Source of the DNA: a bacterium
GTDB taxonomy: Bacteria; Pseudomonadota; Alphaproteobacteria; Rs-D84; CACZYB01
Length of the DNA: 64,000 nt
Direction of reading: 5' to 3'
Assembly (NCBI GenBank): GCA_024692925.1
Contig: JAILLX010000088.1
Span: forward strand, 152-64,151
In this document: piece by piece, positions 19,017 through 51,384 of the stretch
Layout of the letters: each line of letters begins with the position of its first letter
Position numbering within the stretch: the first letter of the stretch is position 1
Translations under genes and position numbers: made by a program
The notes under the pieces: model-generated
Seen by the model: the letters and a program-made list of their open reading frames with translations, nothing else
Databases searched by the model: none
What the model was told of the DNA's origin: nothing

Positions 19017-20083
19017 AACCCAAAATTATTATAGCATTTTTACAAATCAAAAAACAATAATTAAAAAAAGCAAATATTCCATTCAATTCTAAAGGTAATC
19101 ATTAAAAATATCCTCCATATTTTAAACGAAAAACCAACACAAAAACACCCAACATTTTCCAATCCTCAAATCCATATTGTTCATTTATTGACAAATATTT
19201 ATTTTAGTCCTAAAAATTTGAGAATTCTCGAAAAAAAATAACAAAAAAGTGATTTTTTTATTTGAAATTTAAAAATTAAATTGCTAAAAAAGAACTATGT
19301 TTCGACCGATTCGAGAATCGATTCTATTTTTTACAAAAAGAATCGGTTTTTAAAGTGCTTTTTCTAGTGATTTTTCACTAGACAATTTGATTTTTCAAAA
19401 AGAATCTTAAAATTTTTAACTGATTGATTTTACAGTAAAATTTTTTGTTTTTCTTAGTTTAAAAAGTTGCCAAAAAAAGAATCGCTTGACTTTTTTTGTC
19501 GAGTAGTTTAAGAATCTAGCTATGAAACGAATTTGAAATATATTTTTAAGTTTGTTTTCACAGTTATTCCCTGTTGCGTTCCTTTTCTCTCCTTTCCTCC
19601 TTCTCTCCTCGCAACGGGGAATTTTTTTTATCTTGAGCAAGATATCCGAGTAAACAACCTTCCCTTGCCATTGCAAAGCAAAGGCGTGACAATCCATAAT
19701 AAGACAAACACATCTACTGTCACCCTGAACTTGTTTCAGGGTCCAGATCCCGAAATAAATTCGGGATGACCAAAGTTGGCGGAAATATCCCACTTTACCA
19801 TTACGAGAAATCCTAGAATTGCTGGTTTGTATACTCGGTTGGCTCCGATAAAAAAATCCCTTAAGTCGAGGAGAGAGAGAAAATAAGGAGGGAATGACTT
19901 AAGGGATATACTGGCTTTCACCAGACTTGCCGAAATGAGGGGTCGTCTCGGCAAATTTTGTTTTCGTATTAACGAATTGACTTCATTATACAAATTTATT
20001 TTTCTTTGTCAATATATTTTTGAAAAAAATTTTTATTTGTATAATATTTTTAATTTTTTCAGTAAAATCAATAGGTTTTTATT
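19017..20083. promoter_or_regulatory. ~1.07 kb non-coding region: AT-rich iterated AAAAAGAATC repeats and palindromes, then a GC-richer block of long hairpins
   Basis: AAAAAGAATC at 19335, 19397, 19474 (+AAGAATC 19509); palindromes gagaattctc, gaatcgattc, ctagtga-N5-tcactag; hairpins 19569-19619 and 19858-19905 with complementary CT-/GA-rich 28-31 nt loops. Confidence 0.5.
19719..19743. repeat. palindromic hairpin repeat, copy A (gtcaccctgaacttgtttcagggtc)
   Basis: Same unit as at 41931, 42046, 42377; stem carries a compensatory change (ccctgaa/ttcaggg vs tcctgaa/ttcagga); preceded by shared 18-nt box aatccataataagacaaa (19691-19708). Confidence 0.7.
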
Positions 20084-35973: not shown

Positions 35974-36498
35974 TTGGCTGATAAAAACAATAGCTTATCG
36001 CTTAATGTAAATGAAAAAATTCGCGCTCGCGAAGTTCGCTTGATAAATCAAAATGGTGATAATGTTGGTATCGTTTCTGTGTCAGAAGCATTGAATATGG
36101 CACGCGATGCTGGACTTGATCTTCTTGAAATCTCACCACAGGCAAATCCACCTGTATGCAAAATTATGGACTATGGCAAGTGGAAGTATGAGGAACAAAA
36201 AAAACAATCAGAGGCGAAAAAGGCACAAAAGGTTGTTGAAACAAAAGAACTTAAAATCCGCCCAAACATTGATGTTCATGATTTTCAGGTTAAAATCAAG
36301 GCTGCAACTCGTTTTATTGAGGATGGAAACAAGGTTAAATTCACCGTTCGTTTCAAAGGTCGTGAAATCACAAATCAGGATTCCGGCATCCAACTTTTAA
36401 ACAGGGTTAAGGCTGAACTTGGCGATATTATAAAGGTTGATAAGGAACCAATGATGGAAGGCAGACAGATGATAATGTTTGTTGTTCCAAATAAATAA
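35974..36498 (+). CDS. infC: translation initiation factor IF-3
   Basis: 174 aa; IRAREVRLINQNGDNVGIVS..AL..A...GLDLLEISP.A.PPVCKIMDYGK. Confidence 0.9.
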   Translation: MADKNNSLSLNVNEKIRAREVRLINQNGDNVGIVSVSEALNMARDAGLDLLEISPQANPPVCKIMDYGKWKYEEQKKQSEAKKAQKVVETKELKIRPNIDVHDFQVKIKAATRFIEDGNKVKFTVRFKGREITNQDSGIQLLNRVKAELGDIIKVDKEPMMEGRQMIMFVVPNK

Positions 36499-36503
36499 AA
36501 TTT

Positions 36504-36531
36504 ACCCCGCCACAAGGTGGGGATTTTTTTT
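36504..36531 (+). terminator. rho-independent terminator after infC
   Basis: accccgcc...ggtgggga + T-run. Confidence 0.6.
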
Positions 36532-36599
36532 GATTTTCTTCTCATAGCAAAAACCTCCAAAATGTGCTATCTTTCTTTCAAGTGAAGGAGGAAAGATTT

Positions 36600-37196
36600 A
36601 TGGCAAATATTTTACTTATCTATGGTCATCCAAAAACACCAACCAGTTTTAATTTTGCATTAAAGGAAAAACTTGTTTCTGCGATAAAAAATAAGGGACA
36701 TAACATTCTTGTTCGTGATTTGTATGAGGTAAGTTTTAATCCGCTTTTGTCATCTGAAGATTTGGCAAAATTGCATAATAATGAAATTCCCGAAGATATA
36801 AAACAAGAGCAAGAATTCATAAAAAATGCTGATGTGATAATTTTCATTTATCCAATATGGTGGGCAGGAAGTCCCGCAATCATAAAGGGTTATATTGACC
36901 GAGTATTTTCCTATGGTTTTGCATATATGTATAAGGGGAGTAAAGTAGTCGGACTTTTGACTGATAAACGAGCTATTGTAATAAATTCTAATGGTTCACC
37001 CTATGACTTTTATAAAAACGAAGGATTCTATAGTGCCATTAAAAAAACTGTTGATGAAGGAATTTTCAAATTCTGTGGTTTTAAAAGGGTAAAACATCTT
37101 TTCTTTGGTGGGATTATGAATAAAACTATGGAAGAAAAAGATGAAAATATAAAACAGGCGATTGATGAAACAATTATCGAGATAGAGGCAAAATAA
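36600..37196 (+). CDS. flavodoxin-like fold NAD(P)H dehydrogenase (quinone) family protein (start at MANILLIYGHP after an AGGAGG RBS)
   Basis: ILLIYGHPK...SFN..L motif typical of Flavodoxin_2/NQO-like proteins. Confidence 0.65.
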   Translation: MANILLIYGHPKTPTSFNFALKEKLVSAIKNKGHNILVRDLYEVSFNPLLSSEDLAKLHNNEIPEDIKQEQEFIKNADVIIFIYPIWWAGSPAIIKGYIDRVFSYGFAYMYKGSKVVGLLTDKRAIVINSNGSPYDFYKNEGFYSAIKKTVDEGIFKFCGFKRVKHLFFGGIMNKTMEEKDENIKQAIDETIIEIEAK

Positions 37197-37197
37197 A

Positions 37198-37230
37198 ATT
37201 CCCCACCAAAGATGGGGAATTTTTTCTTTT
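37198..37230 (+). terminator. rho-independent terminator
   Basis: ttccccacc...gatggggaa + T-run. Confidence 0.55.
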
Positions 37231-37242
37231 AAACAGATACAA

Positions 37243-37947
37243 TTAGAATTGTACGCCATATTTCAATGTAAGAACATTGTCTATATCATCGATTTTTGCT
37301 TCATGAGTATAAGCCAATGACCATAGACCACCCTTTAGGTAATTTACTTGTGCAGTCACAGCCATTGAATTTTCATCATCTTGACCATACCAAGAGAATT
37401 CATCAACAATTGTATATTTAAGTCCAAGACTTGCAGATACACGATCATCAAATGAGTATGCACCTTCTAAACCAAGAACTATATTGTTTGTATCTGTATA
37501 ATCTTTTACATCGATATGTTCAACACCTGCTTGTGCAGCAAGAGTATATTTCTTTGTTTGTTTACCGAATTTCAAACCAGCATCCCATGCAGTATAATCA
37601 CCGATAACATCTTCATCTATTGCTGTTTGATAATGAGCATAGATATCAGAAATGAATGAACCTGATGAAAGTCTGTATGCACCACCAATGTTGAATGAAC
37701 CAAAGCCGTCTTCACCATCTTCTTTATCTTGATCGATATAGTTTACAAAGCCGTCAACAACCAATCTGTTTGTAATACCATAACCAAACTTTTGTTGCAA
37801 AGTATATTCTGTATCAGCTTTTGCAACTGATGTTTTTGAATAAAGTTTACCTTTTGCAGGTGCATAAAGTGGATCTTCCACATTTGCATTTGCAGCAGAT
37901 GAAACAGCTAAAACAGCAAGTAATGATAATAATGATATTTTTTTCAT
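37243..37947 (-). CDS. outer-membrane beta-barrel protein (porin/OmpW-like)
   Basis: 234 aa; signal peptide ending AANA; alternating amphipathic strands; C-terminal ...TLKYGVQF with terminal Phe. Confidence 0.6.
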   Translation of the reverse strand: MKKISLLSLLAVLAVSSAANANVEDPLYAPAKGKLYSKTSVAKADTEYTLQQKFGYGITNRLVVDGFVNYIDQDKEDGEDGFGSFNIGGAYRLSSGSFISDIYAHYQTAIDEDVIGDYTAWDAGLKFGKQTKKYTLAAQAGVEHIDVKDYTDTNNIVLGLEGAYSFDDRVSASLGLKYTIVDEFSWYGQDDENSMAVTAQVNYLKGGLWSLAYTHEAKIDDIDNVLTLKYGVQF

Positions 37948-38038
37948 ATTATATCTCCTTTTTTTAGTTTAACATACAAGATTTTCACCCTGTTGATAAG
38001 AATCTTATCCTAAAACAAGAAGATTGTAAAGAGTTTAT

Positions 38039-38821
38039 TTATCTTGAAAAATCAGTACTTTTGGATAATTGATTATCCATTTTCAAAAGTTCAAGCAACT
38101 TATTTTTACCCATTTCGAACATCTCGTCACGGCTTTTTGAAATATCATCCGACAATGCAATTTCAGTATTATCAGTTGGGGTTGAAACAACCTCCTCCTG
38201 TGGCATTGCGAAACTTGGTACTTCATCAACCTTTGTTTCAGGTTCTGAAAACGCTGGCACATCGGACATATTTTCAATAACCTCCTCCATAACCGGAGTA
38301 AATTCAGGAACTGCAAATTCAATATTATCCCCCAAATCCAATTCAGCTTCTGCCTTTTTAATTTCATCTGATGAAAAATCAACTGATGGTACAGAAAATT
38401 CCGGAACATCAGCAACACTATTTTCTTGTGGCATAGAAAAACTTGGCACTTCCTCCGCCATCTCCTCCTGTAGCATTGCGAAACTTGGTACTTCCTCAAC
38501 CTTTGTTTCAGGTTCCGAAAATGCTGGCACATCATCAACCTTAACTTCGTTTTGCACAGGATTTTCAGCAGTTTCTTTTACTTCTGGTTTTACTTCAACC
38601 TGACCATTTTCCAAACGGCTTCGTATTTCATTGACAAGTTGTTGATGCCTATCCTTAACAGAAATTTCTTCATCCTTTTTACGGCTTTCACCATAGCCAT
38701 CAGCCCATCTTGTTTTAAGTGGTTCCACATTCATAACGGATCTCATTTGTTCATCAGTAAGCCCGTATGATTTTTTCATATTTTCATATTCTTCAAGTGG
38801 TACTTGTCTTACTTCAGCCAT
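38039..38821 (-). CDS. acidic protein with internal ~80-aa tandem repeats (start at MAEVRQ)
   Basis: DVPAFSEPETKVEEVPSFAM.QEE... repeated twice; strongly acidic; no known domain. Confidence 0.45.
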   Translation of the reverse strand: MAEVRQVPLEEYENMKKSYGLTDEQMRSVMNVEPLKTRWADGYGESRKKDEEISVKDRHQQLVNEIRSRLENGQVEVKPEVKETAENPVQNEVKVDDVPAFSEPETKVEEVPSFAMLQEEMAEEVPSFSMPQENSVADVPEFSVPSVDFSSDEIKKAEAELDLGDNIEFAVPEFTPVMEEVIENMSDVPAFSEPETKVDEVPSFAMPQEEVVSTPTDNTEIALSDDISKSRDEMFEMGKNKLLELLKMDNQLSKSTDFSR

Positions 38822-38875
38822 AAAAAATTCTCCTTCTAAAACAGAAGTATAACACAAAAAATTTTTTATTTCAAA

Positions 38876-40141
38876 TTATTTAGAAAGTTTCAATTTTATT
38901 GTATCAAGGTCATAAATACCTTCACATTTTCCAAGACCCGCAACCGTAATTTTTGATGAAAAAATTTTCTGTGCAGTATTTTTTATATCATCCAGCGAAA
39001 GTGATTCAATAAGTTGTATTGACTCAGAAAACGGAATATGCTTTCCAAAGTGTTGCATTTGACGACCCAAAACCCTTGCCCTTGCAGTTGAATTTTCCAA
39101 ACTCATTAACACACTGGACTTATAACTTATCTTTGCACGTTCAAATTCACGTTCAGTAATACCATCACAAATCTTTAAAATTTCACCGGCTGTTGCATCA
39201 ATAACCTTGTTAATCTTTTCCGGTACGGTGGAAGTATAAATATAAAAATGTCCGGTATCGGAATAATTACTTACACTTGAATATATTGTGTAAACAAGGT
39301 TGTGTTTTTCCCTTACCTCTTGGAAAAGTCGGGATGACATTCCCCCGCCAAGGGTATTGCAAAGAATGTTTTCACAAAAAACTTCTTTCCTGTCAAAAAG
39401 GTTTGTTGCTTCGAACCCAAGCATAAGGTGTACTTGCTCCAAATCTTTGTTTTTGATAAAGTACCCACCCTCGTATTTTGCAGGTGGTGTTGGTGGACAT
39501 CCAGCCACAGTCAAATTTGTGAAATATTTTTTTGCAAGTTCAATAACTTTTTCCTCATCAAAATTTCCTGATACCACAAGGAAAAGTTTATCGGCACAAT
39601 AATTTGTTTTGATATAGGATTTAAGCATATCCGGAGTAATAGAACGTATCGTTTCATCAGTACCCAAAATTGCCCGCCCAAGTGGTTGGTTTGGATATGC
39701 CACCTCGCCATAGTAATCATAAATCACATCATCCGGAGTATCCAGCGAGCTATAATATTCCTGTAAAATAACATTCCTTTCCTTCGAAGTTTCATTTTCA
39801 TCGAAAACAGAGTTTTGAATAATATCCGCCAAAATATCAATGCTTACTTCTAAATATTCCTTTAATGTTTTGGTATAAAAAAAGGTATGATCCTTTGAGG
39901 TATAGGCGTTAATATCGCCCCCAATATCTTCGATAATTTCAGCAATATCCTTATATGTTTTAGTAGTAGTCCCCTTAAAAGCCATATGTTCCAAAAAGTG
40001 TGAAATTCCGTTAATTTCCTTTGTTTCATTACGTGAACCAACACTTGCCCACACACCACAAAAAACCGTTTCAATCGAAGGGTTAAAATCCGACACAACC
40101 GTAAATCCATTTTCCAACTTTGTAATTCTTACATTCTTCAT
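38876..40141 (-). CDS. M16 family zinc metallopeptidase (pitrilysin/processing-peptidase-like)
   Basis: 421 aa; inverted zinc motif HFLEHMAFKGT (HxxEH). Confidence 0.85.
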   Translation of the reverse strand: MKNVRITKLENGFTVVSDFNPSIETVFCGVWASVGSRNETKEINGISHFLEHMAFKGTTTKTYKDIAEIIEDIGGDINAYTSKDHTFFYTKTLKEYLEVSIDILADIIQNSVFDENETSKERNVILQEYYSSLDTPDDVIYDYYGEVAYPNQPLGRAILGTDETIRSITPDMLKSYIKTNYCADKLFLVVSGNFDEEKVIELAKKYFTNLTVAGCPPTPPAKYEGGYFIKNKDLEQVHLMLGFEATNLFDRKEVFCENILCNTLGGGMSSRLFQEVREKHNLVYTIYSSVSNYSDTGHFYIYTSTVPEKINKVIDATAGEILKICDGITEREFERAKISYKSSVLMSLENSTARARVLGRQMQHFGKHIPFSESIQLIESLSLDDIKNTAQKIFSSKITVAGLGKCEGIYDLDTIKLKLSK

Positions 40142-40268
40142 AACACACCTCTTTTTAATGATAGTAAAATAGTATCACCTGCCCTGATTAAAATCAAATA
40201 AAAAAGTATTTACAATAAGTATTATATACTTTATACTTTAAGAAAATAAGTCACAAAAAGGAGAAAAA

Positions 40269-41864
40269 ATGTTAAACAAAAGAAGCATAGGAAAAATTTT
40301 ACTTTCTGTTTTTGTAATATCATCACTACTTATTACTGGTGATAGTATTGTAAATGCAGCAAAGAAAAGATCATCAAAACGTGCAAGTAGCACATCAAAC
40401 AAAAAGAAAACTTCATCAAAAAAATCCGGTTCAAAACGTTCGGCAAGTTCTAAATCATCGAAACGTGCCGCAAGTACAAATTCACGTCGTGCCGCAAGTA
40501 CAAATTCCCGCCGTGCCGCACGAACAAACTCTCGCCGTGCTGCCGCTGCTGCACGAAGAATTTCTGGTGCAACAACATCAACTGCTTCCACATCAAAAAG
40601 GTCATCGGGTAATCAATGTCCTGTTGGAAGAGTAGTAAGATATGCTTCTGATGAACAAACATATTATTATGCAAGAAAGAAAACTTGTACTGCACCTGAA
40701 AATGCACACGAAGAATCATGGGATTCAAGTTCTAATTTAAAAAAGATGGCATGGATCGAAGCATCCGAAGCTGTATACTTCACCTGTGATGAAAATTTCA
40801 CAAAAAAGGGAACTGCATGTATCGATGCATACGGTATTTGCCCTCTTGATACTGCACTTGAAAAATCAGGAAAGGATTACATAAATCCAAATACGGATGA
40901 GGCTTGCTCTGCTCCGGAAAAATCAATTTTATCAAAACTTACTGATGAGGAAGCCGAAAACGCAGGATACGATTCCGCATATAAATTCTCTTGCCCTGAA
41001 AATTATTATTCAAGCGAGTTAACAGCTGGATACATTGCACAATGTAATGAATGCCCTGATGGATATACTGCACCTGCTGGTTCCACATCAAAGGATGCCT
41101 GTGTAAATCCATTGGATAAGGTATCATGCGATGCCGGAAACGGATATGTCGATGGCACATGTACCCCATGTGCTGCTGGTACTTTCTCTCTTGGTGGAAA
41201 GACACAATGTAATACTTGTCTTGCAACAGGTGTTGCGACATGTGATGCCACAAATGGAAAGGCTTTGACCTGTAAGACTGGCTATTATATGAGTGATGGT
41301 AATTGCGTAGCAGAAAAATCTTGTGGTACAGGGGCTGCGACATGTGATAAATCTACTGGAAAAGCAACAAAATGTAATGGTGGTTATAAGTTGTTAAGCA
41401 ACGGTACATGTGAAATTTGTCCTGCTGGTACTTATGCAAGGGCTGGTTCACAAGTATGTTCTCCATGTAATGATTACTACTGGTCTAACCCTGGTTCTGC
41501 ATCTTGCGGTCGAATTCAAATTAAAATTACTTACTCTCATTGGAACAATGACAATGAAGCAGGAAGAACTTGTGCCGCTTCAAAACAACAATGGTTTAAC
41601 GCTGGAACAACTGTTCAATGTAATAATGCAACATTTGGTGACCCTGCGGTAGGTCGTGGTAAGGGTTGTGGTGCCGAATGTGCTCACCTTTCAAGTGAAG
41701 GACAAACCATTGAACTTGGTTCATGCCGAAAACTTCCATGTGATATTTACGGAAGAAGTGGCGACAGAACTATAAAACTTAATGCTGATGGTACCGCTGA
41801 TGGTAAGGGTTCTGGTTGGTCCAATACTTACAGCAGGGTTTCATCAAATATGGTAAGATGGTAA
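40269..41864 (+). CDS. secreted cysteine-rich repeat protein with basic Ser/Arg/Ala-rich N-terminal module
   Basis: 531 aa; signal peptide; KRASSTSNKKKTSSKK...STNSRRAASTNSRRAARTNSRRAAAAARR; >40 Cys in repeated C..C(P).G.Y(.A.AG....C..C) units resembling eukaryotic furin-like/GCC2-GCC3/VSP-type repeats. Confidence 0.55.
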   Translation: MLNKRSIGKILLSVFVISSLLITGDSIVNAAKKRSSKRASSTSNKKKTSSKKSGSKRSASSKSSKRAASTNSRRAASTNSRRAARTNSRRAAAAARRISGATTSTASTSKRSSGNQCPVGRVVRYASDEQTYYYARKKTCTAPENAHEESWDSSSNLKKMAWIEASEAVYFTCDENFTKKGTACIDAYGICPLDTALEKSGKDYINPNTDEACSAPEKSILSKLTDEEAENAGYDSAYKFSCPENYYSSELTAGYIAQCNECPDGYTAPAGSTSKDACVNPLDKVSCDAGNGYVDGTCTPCAAGTFSLGGKTQCNTCLATGVATCDATNGKALTCKTGYYMSDGNCVAEKSCGTGAATCDKSTGKATKCNGGYKLLSNGTCEICPAGTYARAGSQVCSPCNDYYWSNPGSASCGRIQIKITYSHWNNDNEAGRTCAASKQQWFNAGTTVQCNNATFGDPAVGRGKGCGAECAHLSSEGQTIELGSCRKLPCDIYGRSGDRTIKLNADGTADGKGSGWSNTYSRVSSNMVRW

Positions 41865-41885
41865 TCATAATATAACTAATAAAAA

Positions 41886-41916
41886 GACCCTGAAATTCAT
41901 TCAGGGCCTTTTTTTG
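41886..41916 (+). terminator. terminator-like hairpin (degenerate member of the hairpin repeat family) after the Cys-rich gene
   Basis: gaccctgaa attcat ttcagggcc + T-run. Confidence 0.5.
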
Positions 41917-41930
41917 TCGCATAATACCTT

Positions 41931-41955
41931 GTCATCGTGAACTTGTTTCAGGATC
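41931..41955. repeat. palindromic hairpin repeat, copy B (gtcatcgtgaacttgtttcaggatc)
   Basis: Matches copies at 19719, 42046 and 42377(rc). Confidence 0.65.
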
Positions 41956-42045
41956 TAAAACTAATATCCTGTCATTGCGAACCTCACAGTGGCACGGTAA
42001 TCCATAATAAGACAAATATATCCTTTGTCACACTTATATATAATT

Positions 42046-42070
42046 GTCATCCTGAACTTGTTTCAGGATC
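42046..42070. repeat. palindromic hairpin repeat, copy C, overlapping the 3' end/stop of the GIY-YIG gene; preceded by the 18-nt box taatccataataagacaaa (41998-42016)
   Basis: gtcatcctgaacttgtttcaggatc; 8-bp stem atcctgaa/ttcaggat with 5-nt loop. Confidence 0.7.
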
Positions 42071-42360
42071 TAAAACAAACTATCATACAAATCATTAAAA
42101 TCTGGATTTTTACTTTTAATTAAATTTATCTTCCAATCTCTGTGCCAATTTTTAAGTTGTCGTTCTCTTGAAACCATAAGATAAGGATCATCATAAATTT
42201 CATAATAAACAAGTTTTTCAACATTATATTTTTTTGAAAATCCTTTAAAAATTTTATTTTTATGTTCATAAATTCTTTTTTGTAAATCTGATGTAGAACC
42301 AATATAAAATACATTATTTTTTAAATTCGTTAAAATATAAATATAATATTGTTTTGACAT
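42070..42360 (-). CDS. small GIY-YIG nuclease domain protein (YhbQ/UPF0213-like); start reassigned to ATG (MSKQYY)
   Basis: ~96 aa; YYIYILTN (GIY), FYIGST (YIG), R.YEH motif. Confidence 0.8.
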   Translation of the reverse strand: MSKQYYIYILTNLKNNVFYIGSTSDLQKRIYEHKNKIFKGFSKKYNVEKLVYYEIYDDPYLMVSRERQLKNWHRDWKINLIKSKNPDFNDLYDSLF

Positions 42361-42376
42361 ATTTTTTAATCTCAAA

Positions 42377-42401
42377 GATCCTGAAACAAGTTCAGGATGA
42401 C
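42377..42401. repeat. palindromic hairpin repeat, copy D in inverted orientation, 17 nt upstream of the GIY-YIG start
   Basis: gatcctgaaacaagttcaggatgac = reverse complement of copy C. Confidence 0.7.
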
Positions 42402-42433
42402 CCTCCCCTCTATCATTATAAAAGACTACTCTT

Positions 42434-43681
42434 CTACTGATACCTTAATGCCTCAATCGGATCAAGTTTTGTTGCCTTAATCGCAGGGAAAATTCCTGAC
42501 GCAATTCCAACAACAATTGCAACTGAAAATGAAATTATCACGGTAAGCATTGATATTGGCACATTCTTTTCCAACAAAACGCCAACAACTTGCGATATAC
42601 CAATACCCAAAACCATTCCAACCATACTTCCAATAAACGAAATCAAAATCGCCTCCAAAAGGAATTGATAAAGTATATAGGAATTTTTCGCACCAATCGC
42701 CTTTCGTATACCAATCTCACGCGTACGTTCGGTCACGGAAACAAGCATCATATTCATAATACCAATACTTCCAACAATAAGGGATATCGAAGCAATCGAC
42801 GCCAACAAAATCGAAAGATATGTTCCAACCGACTTTACAGTTTCGACCATCTCGGTCATATCATCCACCCTAAAATCATTTTCCGCACCAGGTTTAAGAC
42901 GTCGAGATTCGCGTAGGGCATTTTCAATATACTTTTTTGCCTTTGAAATATTTTTATCACTATCCACCTGTGCCATAATATAGCTTACACGATTCGGAAT
43001 ATAACTTCCCCTAATACGTCTACGATAAGTTGTCACCGGCATAATCACAGTTTCGTCCCTGTCGACGCCACCCATACCTTGACCCTTTGCCTTTAACACA
43101 CCCTTTACAATAAACGGAATATTACTTACACGCACAGTTTTCCCAATCGCACTTTCACCACCTGGGAAAAGATTCGCTTCAATAGTTTTTCCAATCAACA
43201 CATAAGCCTGTGCCGATTTCACATCACGTTCGGAAAGTCCCTCGCCTCGTTCAATCTCCCACTTTCCAGTAGAAAGATAATCCGGAGTCGACGCAACAAT
43301 TGATGCGGTATAATTTTCATTTCCATAAATAATTTGTGCCGTACCATTAACAATAGGCGACACTGCCTTTATATATTTAAGTTTTCTTATCACATCCGCA
43401 TCACCAGTTTTAACCACAGTTTGCCCACCACTTTTCACACCCGACGTTGCAACAAATTCCGGTCTGATAAGCAAAAGATTACTTCCCATTCCGGCGAAAC
43501 TGTCGTTAATCATATTCTGTACAGTTTGCCCCGCCGCAACCATAATCACAACTGCACACACACCAATAATGATACCAAGTGTTGTCAAAAACGAACGAAG
43601 TTTATTTGACTTTATCGAAATCCAAGACTCACGAAAAACAGCATTGGACATATGAATTTTTTGATCAAGTTTTTCTTCCAT
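42434..43681 (-). CDS. ABC transporter permease, MacB/LolE (FtsX) family
   Basis: 415 aa; N-terminal TM, large periplasmic domain, three C-terminal TMs; MacB-like architecture. Confidence 0.82.
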   Translation of the reverse strand: MEEKLDQKIHMSNAVFRESWISIKSNKLRSFLTTLGIIIGVCAVVIMVAAGQTVQNMINDSFAGMGSNLLLIRPEFVATSGVKSGGQTVVKTGDADVIRKLKYIKAVSPIVNGTAQIIYGNENYTASIVASTPDYLSTGKWEIERGEGLSERDVKSAQAYVLIGKTIEANLFPGGESAIGKTVRVSNIPFIVKGVLKAKGQGMGGVDRDETVIMPVTTYRRRIRGSYIPNRVSYIMAQVDSDKNISKAKKYIENALRESRRLKPGAENDFRVDDMTEMVETVKSVGTYLSILLASIASISLIVGSIGIMNMMLVSVTERTREIGIRKAIGAKNSYILYQFLLEAILISFIGSMVGMVLGIGISQVVGVLLEKNVPISMLTVIISFSVAIVVGIASGIFPAIKATKLDPIEALRYQ

Positions 43682-51069: not shown

Positions 51070-51384
51070 CTAATCGTGATGGTGGTGACAGTGGCAATCA
51101 CAGTCATCATCTTCACAATGACATTCTTCGCATTCACAATCTTCGTGACAATCACAATCATCATCTTCGGCGAAAACTTCCTCTTCTGATGCTCCCGCCT
51201 CCATTAAGGCTTGCTTTTTCTTATCAATTTTTACATTAACCGAAGCATATTCATCCTCAAAACCATACTTTTTAGCAATAGCTTCATTTTCTATAAATTT
51301 AGAAATTTCATCTTCGGAAAGACCCATTTCCCTTGCTTTTTTAATAATTTCTTCTGTTGTCATTTTATAACCTTTCGTTTGCAA
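51070..51384 (-). CDS. small protein with Cys/His/Asp-rich metal-binding-like C-terminal tail
   Basis: ~100 aa; C-terminus DDDCDCHEDCECEECHCEDDDCDCHCHHHHD. Confidence 0.5.
   Translation of the reverse strand: MQTKGYKMTTEEIIKKAREMGLSEDEISKFIENEAIAKKYGFEDEYASVNVKIDKKKQALMEAGASEEEVFAEDDDCDCHEDCECEECHCEDDDCDCHCHHHHD

Follow-up and report, generated by a model that had tools for sequence, protein, structure and literature searches.

Among described systems, the closest to the locus reported here is that of SsnA from Neisseria meningitidis (Nm), a 94-amino-acid (aa), single-domain GIY-YIG nuclease (cd10448) whose gene is, among all genes, the one most often flanked by these hairpin repeats, called NTS in Neisseria (Chenal et al., Nat Commun 2025, PMC11893778). 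We describe a small nuclease gene bracketed by inverted hairpins in a 64-kb stretch of DNA from an alphaproteobacterium (GTDB lineage Rs-D84; CACZYB01), namely positions 152 to 64,151 of contig JAILLX010000088.1 in assembly GCA_024692925.1. The whole stretch is called the window here, and positions are counted from its first letter. The locus is very probably an ssnA–SRM module: a gene for an Ssn-family single-stranded DNA (ssDNA) endonuclease, bracketed by its own recognition hairpins (Ssn-related motifs, SRMs), which are also CGTC/TGTC-tagged repetitive extragenic palindromes (REPs). The association of the small nuclease gene with such hairpins was already published in 2025 as the Ssn/SRM system, of which this locus is a new example.

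The biochemistry of Nm SsnA provides the frame for this comparison. The enzyme binds its hairpin solely as ssDNA, on the tagged strand, and cuts a few nucleotides (nt) 5′ of the GTC, whereas it neither acts on nor binds double-stranded DNA (dsDNA) or RNA (PMC11893778). Binding depends critically on the C that follows the palindrome, and cleavage on the three bases that precede it. The identity of the loop is dispensable, the loop can be extended with cleavage kept, and mutations of Y6, Y17 and E64 abolish cleavage. In N. meningitidis, SsnA reduces transformation by repeat-bearing DNA. Of the Ssn homologues, 71% have at least one SRM and 42% have SRMs on both sides; the Discussion of that paper calls the repeat–gene–repeat layout insertion sequence-like and proposes a domesticated element (PMC11893778).

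The hairpins themselves have an older literature. CGTC/TGTC-tagged REPs have stems of 8–9 bp that start with A-T pairs, loops of 4–5 nt and short tails; they form mostly inverted dimers, lie mostly downstream of genes and occur in five phyla. The superfamily includes Neisseria dRS3 and Rickettsia RPE-4/-6, and its authors concluded that the repeats “apparently lack a dedicated transposase” (Di Nocera, De Gregorio, Rocco 2013, PMC3733652). The name ‘Di Nocera’ is absent from the text of the Ssn paper, and our literature search found no follow-up to the latter.

In the window, the ssnA-type gene occupies 42073–42360 on the minus strand, with its ATG at 42360 and its stop codon TAG at 42070–42072. 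Hairpin D (42377–42401, minus strand) lies 16 nt upstream of the ATG, its GTCA tag directed away from the gene. Hairpin C (42046–42070, plus strand) is an exact inverted copy of D; its tag also points away from the gene and it overlaps the stop codon by 1 nt. Together they constitute a perfect inverted repeat of 26 nt, the copies lying 304 nt apart. An earlier reading of the letters alone, here the original prediction, had recognised the inverted bracketing and the overlap with the stop codon, but had placed D 17 nt from the start of the gene.

The encoded 96-aa protein is a single-domain GIY-YIG nuclease within the size range of the Ssn family (about 94–100 aa) and has no accessory DNA-binding domain. 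Pfam PF01541 (GIY-YIG) covers residues 4–79 with an E value of 1.3e-18. The AlphaFold2 model forms one compact domain with a predicted local distance difference test (pLDDT) score of 92.9, and its best PDB matches are the GIY-YIG folds 1zg2, Slx1 and UvrC. Compared with the 94-aa SsnA orthologue of N. gonorrhoeae, the window protein shows 43% identity over 89/94 residues (BLASTP E 2e-29, where the Ssn paper applied E < 1e-10), and hhalign aligns the two with a probability of 99.9%. The comparison sequence was the gonococcal orthologue from NZ_CP119140, not the meningococcal protein. Its locus was found by tblastn of PLSDB, in which two N. gonorrhoeae chromosomes are filed as plasmids; the record is a 2.17-Mb chromosome, and the region NZ_CP119140.1 1880760–1884044 (L208) encodes the 94-aa SsnA flanked by NTS repeats. 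Residues Y8, Y19 and E66 of the window protein align with Y6, Y17 and E64 of Nm SsnA, the GIY-YIG tyrosines and the cofactor-binding glutamate. Across 37 homologues no substitution is seen at Y19 or E66, and Y8 is nearly invariant. No database record was found for the exact sequence of the window protein.

Pattern scans and folding added one unit to the set. The unit GTCAYCCTGAACTTGTTTCAGGRTC has four matches in the window against 0.00 expected from 100 shuffles, at 19719 (A), 41931 (B, with one mismatch), 42046 (C) and, on the minus strand, 42377 (D), exactly the copies that the original prediction had listed. A fifth unit, A′ (19746–19770, minus strand; GTCATCCCGAATTTATTTCGGGATC, stem TCCCGAA, loop TTTAT), was found by a looser pattern and carries a further compensatory stem change. 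Folding gives every unit a stem of 8 bp and a loop of 5 nt, and all five follow the scheme (T/G)GTC-A[7 nt]-loop-[7 nt]T-C, reading TGTC in A, B and C and GGTC in A′ and D. Folding also agrees with the paired stem change (CCCTGAA/TTCAGGG) that had been noticed in copy A (19719–19743, plus strand). A′ lies only 2 nt from A in the opposite orientation; site A is thus an inverted doublet, with A as its left and A′ as its right half and no gene inside. Copy B (41931–41955, plus strand) stands head-to-tail with C. Its C-to-G substitution creates a G-G mismatch, and its folding energy is −3.3 kcal/mol (z −1.4) compared with −6.1 kcal/mol for C. Because the substitution breaks a stem pair, we regard B as weakened or decaying.

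The 18-nt box that had been proposed to precede A and C is present at 19691 and 41999. It consists of the tail and flank of a decayed sister-type hairpin, so that a two-hairpin module is common to both sites. Both decayed copies lie on the plus strand and end in AATCCAT: TGCCATTGCA...GACAATCCAT at 19666–19697, which with its box (19691–19708) spans 19666–19708, and TGTCATTGCGA...GGTAATCCAT at 41970–42005, which with its box (41999–42016) spans 41970–42016. In a relative (L292), a recognisable counterpart of the decayed hairpin at 19666–19708 reads TCATTGCGAAG...GCAATCCATAAT.

The units agree in anatomy with both described repeat families. As in the parts defined by mutagenesis in Nm, a GTC stands directly 5′ of a hairpin-forming palindrome and a C directly 3′ of it. 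With the CGTC-tagged REPs they share the CGTC/TGTC tag, an 8-bp stem whose first pair is A-T (followed, in the window units, by a Y-R pair), a short loop (here 5 nt) and 3′ tail, the arrangement in inverted pairs or dimers and the spread over many phyla (PMC3733652). The difference is that no dedicated enzyme was named for those REPs, whereas here and in the Ssn paper ssnA is the associated gene. Likewise, the locus resembles the Ssn/SRM system in its roughly 95-aa single-domain GIY-YIG protein with conserved nuclease residues, in the (C/T)GTC tag, the 8-bp stem and the C after the palindrome, in the repeats on both sides of the gene, and in repeats that far outnumber the genes. It differs in its AT-rich stem (YSCYGAA) and conserved YTTRT loop, where NTS has TTCCCGCG, and in its host, which is not a Neisseria but an uncultured organism known from a low-GC metagenome-assembled genome (MAG); the nearest relatives in sequence derive from metagenome assemblies.

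Outside the window, a pattern with four free stem pairs matched at least 120 IMG/VR contigs (L001–L120); the hairpin family is therefore common in contigs classed as viral. Among the matches listed, 153 units are independent, and their four free stem pairs are Watson–Crick in 136–150 of the 153, compared with shuffle maxima of 73–140. Up to four pair types occur at one stem position in this set. This covariation bears out the earlier proposal of a structured family whose stems change in a compensatory way. Conservation among the listed units is highest in the asymmetric tag and tail, with C before the GTC in 76 of the 153 and T in 58. Listed units are depleted in open reading frames (ORFs), 53/154 lying inside one compared with 1922/2400 random positions, and close pairs among them consist of a plus copy followed by a minus copy in 15 of 20 cases. 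An ssnA homologue is present in only one of the 120 hairpin-bearing contigs listed, not adjacent to the hairpin. Most hairpins thus lie far from any such gene, and the association was tested from the gene side instead.

Homologues with 50–80% identity to the window protein are found in MAGs and isolates of more than 12 phyla. Their hosts include Patescibacteria, Melainabacteria, several proteobacterial classes, Campylobacterota, Atribacterota and Spirochaetes, as well as Elusimicrobia, Bacteroidota, Ignavibacteria, Chloroflexota, Planctomycetota and Nitrospirae. Their genes are flanked as in the window, by a tag-outward unit shortly before the ATG and a reverse-complement unit at or just past the stop codon. 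Under a structural definition (GTC[AT], a stem of 8–9 bp with at most one mismatch, a loop of 3–7 nt and a C after the stem), 71 of 84 homologous genes have at least one tagged hairpin within 200 nt, and 50 of the 84 have one on both sides, as does the window gene with D and C. The window’s arrangement, tag-outward both upstream and downstream, recurs in 44/84, and solely the opposite arrangement in 4/84. A stricter definition (8-bp stem, fixed 5-nt loop) gave 5.6 hairpins per kb within 150 nt of the gene compared with 0.07 per kb elsewhere in the same loci. The tie between hairpins and GIY-YIG gene that had been suspected from the window alone is therefore a recurrent one. Of 178 flanking hairpins, 129 are of the CTGAA type found in the window; loci without this type mostly have the sister type GTCATTCCCGCGAAGGCGGGAATCC, which is the Neisseria dRS3/NTS repeat. 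Protein and hairpin subtype co-vary only weakly (57.5% compared with 53.1% identity, uncorrected for phylogeny). Some annotated homologues read into the hairpin, giving C-termini such as ...LDPETSSG and N-termini such as MLNLFQ....

Several variants were seen among these loci. Downstream of ssnA in L140, L149, L153 and L154 the loops measure 30–60 nt and the CTGAA/TTCAG stems are intact (e.g. GTCATCCTGAAaagtagattttattgaatga...cacttaTTCAGGATC), which is compatible with the published loop extension without loss of cleavage (PMC11893778). An Ignavibacteriaceae MAG (L187, 3862–6144) has three ssnA paralogues within 2.3 kb; the flanking units there lack the GTCA tag, and some have other GC-rich palindromes inserted in the loop, e.g. 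GATGCTGAAAgcaccgcaaaggcgggatcccgccaaaggcgtggacAAGTTCAGCAT. Beside macB homologues on metagenome contigs (L280 2276–2347, L284 5250–5321), a tagged type GTCATACCGCGGAAACGCGGTATC occurs as an inverted doublet and resembles the NTSvar (CGTCATACTCGGG...) named in the Ssn paper (PMC11893778).

Several observations weigh against assigning the locus to the Ssn/SRM system. The published SRM search string, HGTCWYN(0-2)YYVSBRHN(0-5)WNVSBRGN(0-2)RNCYNB, as transcribed from the Methods text of PMC11893778, has no match anywhere in the window, the five units included, whereas NTS-type controls do match it. The 64-kb window holds only five intact units. At the N. gonorrhoeae locus the flanks have the opposite, tag-inward orientation, with a reverse copy upstream and forward copies downstream. 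The nearest two hairpins of a gene differ in their stems in 30 of 44 pairs. The YTTRT loop is strongly conserved here and dispensable for Nm SsnA, so the rules of recognition may differ.

The CTGAA units miss the search string because their AT-rich stem fails at its V and S positions, and SRM membership of the window units consequently rests on their anatomy and their association with the gene. The same string matches only 7 of the 84 homologous loci. The AT-rich CTGAA subtype is dominant near the close homologues and is missed by the published motif, so that the system is probably undercounted in genome censuses and in the association figures published so far. The core biology of SsnA and its hairpins is already published; what the window adds is this gap in the motif, a link to the CGTC-tagged REPs and comparative evidence for relocation. 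The hairpins connect research on Ssn with earlier studies of CGTC-tagged REPs, in which no dedicated enzyme was seen. Each new enzyme–hairpin pair is, in addition, a candidate site-specific ssDNA cutter for biotechnology.

Other labels describe the gene less well. The original prediction had called it YhbQ-type. YhbQ/UPF0213 proteins (BH0048, PDB 1zg2) share the length of about 100 aa, the single GIY-YIG domain and the fold (Foldseek E 3.8e-4), but lack the conserved C-terminal KQLKNWHRDWKINLI block of the Ssn clade. A profile of 37 homologues matched BH0048 with an E value of only 0.0033 (20 bits). Set beside 2e-29 to SsnA, this marginal match makes the YhbQ-type label inaccurate. The best NCBIfam match, a group I intron endonuclease model, scored 30.3 bits, far below its cut-off of 56 bits. 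Free-standing GIY-YIG homing endonucleases (T4 Seg proteins, I-TevI) share the catalytic domain and, possibly, a homing-like spread of the cassette; however, they have separate DNA-binding domains and long asymmetric dsDNA sites, whereas the window protein has no extra domain. There is a parallel in layout with the REP/REPIN–RAYT systems (REPtrons), in which a single-copy nuclease gene also lies inside inverted short palindromes, repeats greatly outnumber the gene, inverted doublets occur and the hairpin is recognised as ssDNA. RAYTs, however, are HUH/Y1 homologues that form covalent intermediates and act on GTAG-tagged REPs, whereas Ssn proteins are hydrolytic GIY-YIG enzymes. We rejected a REP–RAYT or IS200–IS605 element for the window, as no HUH/Y1 transposase is present and the only gene between the inverted hairpins is the GIY-YIG nuclease gene.

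Regulatory explanations for the flanking hairpins were also considered, the original prediction having offered an operator/terminator pair. The hairpins could act mainly in RNA, as stem-loops of the 5′ and 3′ untranslated regions or as terminators for the nuclease mRNA and its neighbours. With D 16 nt before the ATG and C abutting the stop codon, both would be part of the transcript; the depletion of the listed units in ORFs and the preference of REPs for sites downstream of genes (PMC3733652) fit such a role, and a terminator-like hairpin with the same stem lies 25 nt from the hairpin array. The units lack a T-tract, however, and their most conserved parts are the asymmetric tag and tail, which are irrelevant to a plain stem-loop. 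Copies also occur in both orientations and as doublets. Rfam searches of the whole window in gathering mode brought only tRNAs to the gathering score, a search around both hairpin sites at E ≤ 10 returned no relevant family, and Nm SsnA does not bind RNA (PMC11893778). A main function in RNA is therefore improbable. We consider it most unlikely that the hairpins form a pair of dsDNA operators at which the protein acts as the repressor of its own gene. The symmetrical placement of the hairpins around the gene is the sole point for it, set against a 96-aa nuclease domain without a DNA-binding module, a characterised homologue that does not bind dsDNA (PMC11893778), and motif copies that mostly lie far from ssnA, the gene being present in one of the 120 viral contigs listed. 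An operator/terminator pair is not supported, given the missing T-tract, the orientation-specific tags and a homologue that binds neither dsDNA nor RNA.

An explanation that builds on the Ssn module, and adds dispersal to it, is that the cassette is an autonomous mobile element and that solitary hairpins and doublets are its non-autonomous derivatives, as REPINs are to RAYTs. Nicks outside both hairpin ends would allow host repair or recombination to copy the unit to hairpin-bearing sites in a homing-like manner. We regard this as possible but doubtful, and the same idea of mobility was raised in the Discussion of PMC11893778. Gastranaerophilales cassettes that are 94–96% identical in nucleotide sequence stand among unrelated neighbours, and they cease to match at −14 to −44 and +25 to +50. 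The segment common to L130 and L133 begins approximately with the upstream hairpin (−44) and stops at the outer end of the downstream one (+25). The closest protein relatives (82% and 78%) are found in other contexts, each with SRM arrays. Nine relatives of this genome, with 80–85% nucleotide identity over macB, cease to match exactly at the stop codon of that gene and have neither ssnA nor a tagged SRM in 40.8 kb. The 600-nt window with the cassette (42000–42599) has 27.5% GC, compared with 36–41% in neighbouring windows. Gene-free inverted doublets such as site A exist, and the plus-then-minus order dominates among the close pairs listed. Nearly identical cassettes that stand in unrelated surroundings and break off at their hairpins thus support relocation of the cassette, which the Ssn paper could only hypothesise.

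To our knowledge, however, GIY-YIG nucleases act by hydrolysis of DNA, and strand transfer is not known for them; no sign of a transposition chemistry was found here. Beside the cassette, whose outer flanks read GGGGAGG and AATTATA, no target-site duplication was seen. The search of relatives for presence and absence that the original prediction had suggested yielded nine macB loci without the cassette, but no clean empty site beside macB, because the whole 37.2–42.4 kb segment is rearranged among relatives as a 5-kb variable island. At site A, L292 keeps the decayed sister hairpin and a ...GGATGAC tag remnant, together with local duplications, which points to hairpin turnover and not to a clean insertion or indel. 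Relocation could instead stem from recombination between dispersed hairpins, and flanking stems are mostly non-identical (30 of the 44 pairs). Dependence of the repeats' dispersal on the nuclease is a hypothesis. In its widest form, which we put forward tentatively and as less than an even prospect, hairpin–ssnA–hairpin would be a compact mobile cassette, autonomous and about 360 bp long, that moves within and between phyla by nuclease-driven, homing-like transfer at hairpin sites. SsnA would then be the missing enzyme that generates and disperses the CGTC/TGTC-tagged REPs, and the CTGAA subtype would stand for a large branch, so far uncharted, that spans Patescibacteria, Melainabacteria, Bacteroidota and gut MAGs.

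For the Ssn module itself, a mechanism can be proposed by analogy with Nm SsnA. The units would fold once the DNA becomes single-stranded, in incoming transforming or conjugative DNA, during replication or in recombination intermediates. The nuclease would bind a unit on the tagged strand only and cut within the variable flank, a few nt 5′ of the tag. The predicted nicks would fall on the plus strand at 19712–19716 (A), 41924–41928 (B, presumably weak) and 42039–42043 (C), and on the minus strand at 19773–19777 (A′) and 42404–42408 (D). The two nicks of the cassette would thereby lie just outside its ends, on opposite strands. Beyond the homology, active-site residues, hairpin anatomy, stem covariation and gene–hairpin linkage, which are directly supported, two compatible roles are candidates. 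One is restriction of SRM-bearing ssDNA or modulation of its recombination, as in Neisseria, and the other is self-propagation of the cassette and its hairpins.

The ssnA-type gene lies downstream of, and on the same strand as, an efflux-type operon of macA, an ABC ATPase gene and macB, and is convergent with a gene for a Cys-rich secreted protein. Between the convergent Cys-rich protein gene and the macAB–ssnA unit, a bidirectional hairpin resembling an intrinsic terminator occupies 41881–41913. The original prediction had seen here, at 41886, a degenerate family member acting as a terminator. The hairpin is indeed terminator-like, and its 7-bp stem CCCTGAA/TTCAGGG matches the stem of copy A exactly, but the GTCA tag is missing; its derivation from the hairpin family is plausible. 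The Cys-rich gene (40269–41864) encodes a predicted secreted protein of 531 aa that combines a repetitive N-terminal region rich in Ser, Arg and Ala with Cys-rich repeats, and for which only sub-threshold matches to TNFR-like and NCD3G domains were obtained. A match to GTCATTGTGAA at 51112 lies inside a Cys/His/Asp-rich coding region and was taken as chance.

Rearrangement is also visible around other cassettes and in the surroundings of the window genes. In four Gastranaerophilales genomes (L138, L139, L141, L143), ssnA cassettes that are almost identical have their flanks in reshuffled combinations: L143 shares its upstream side, beside a tRNA 3′ end, with L139 and its downstream side with L138. 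Cassettes or hairpins thus seem to serve as breakpoints of recombination. Within 36000–42434 of the window, the segment from macB to about 37.2 kb is a variable island. The match of L261 to window 36585–37198 comes about 40 nt after macB, and in L209 and L215 the 36.0–37.4 kb segment is inverted, with 2.5–3 kb of other DNA between it and macB.

Site A lies in a gene-free region of about 1.07 kb (19017–20083), where the doublet is placed between two convergent terminator-like hairpins at 19570–19636 (plus strand) and 19847–19907 (minus strand). Both have long CU-rich loops rich in CCUCC and may be the ends of small RNAs with anti-Shine–Dalgarno-like loops. In L292 these units are locally duplicated (L292 2493–2571 and 2723–2782).

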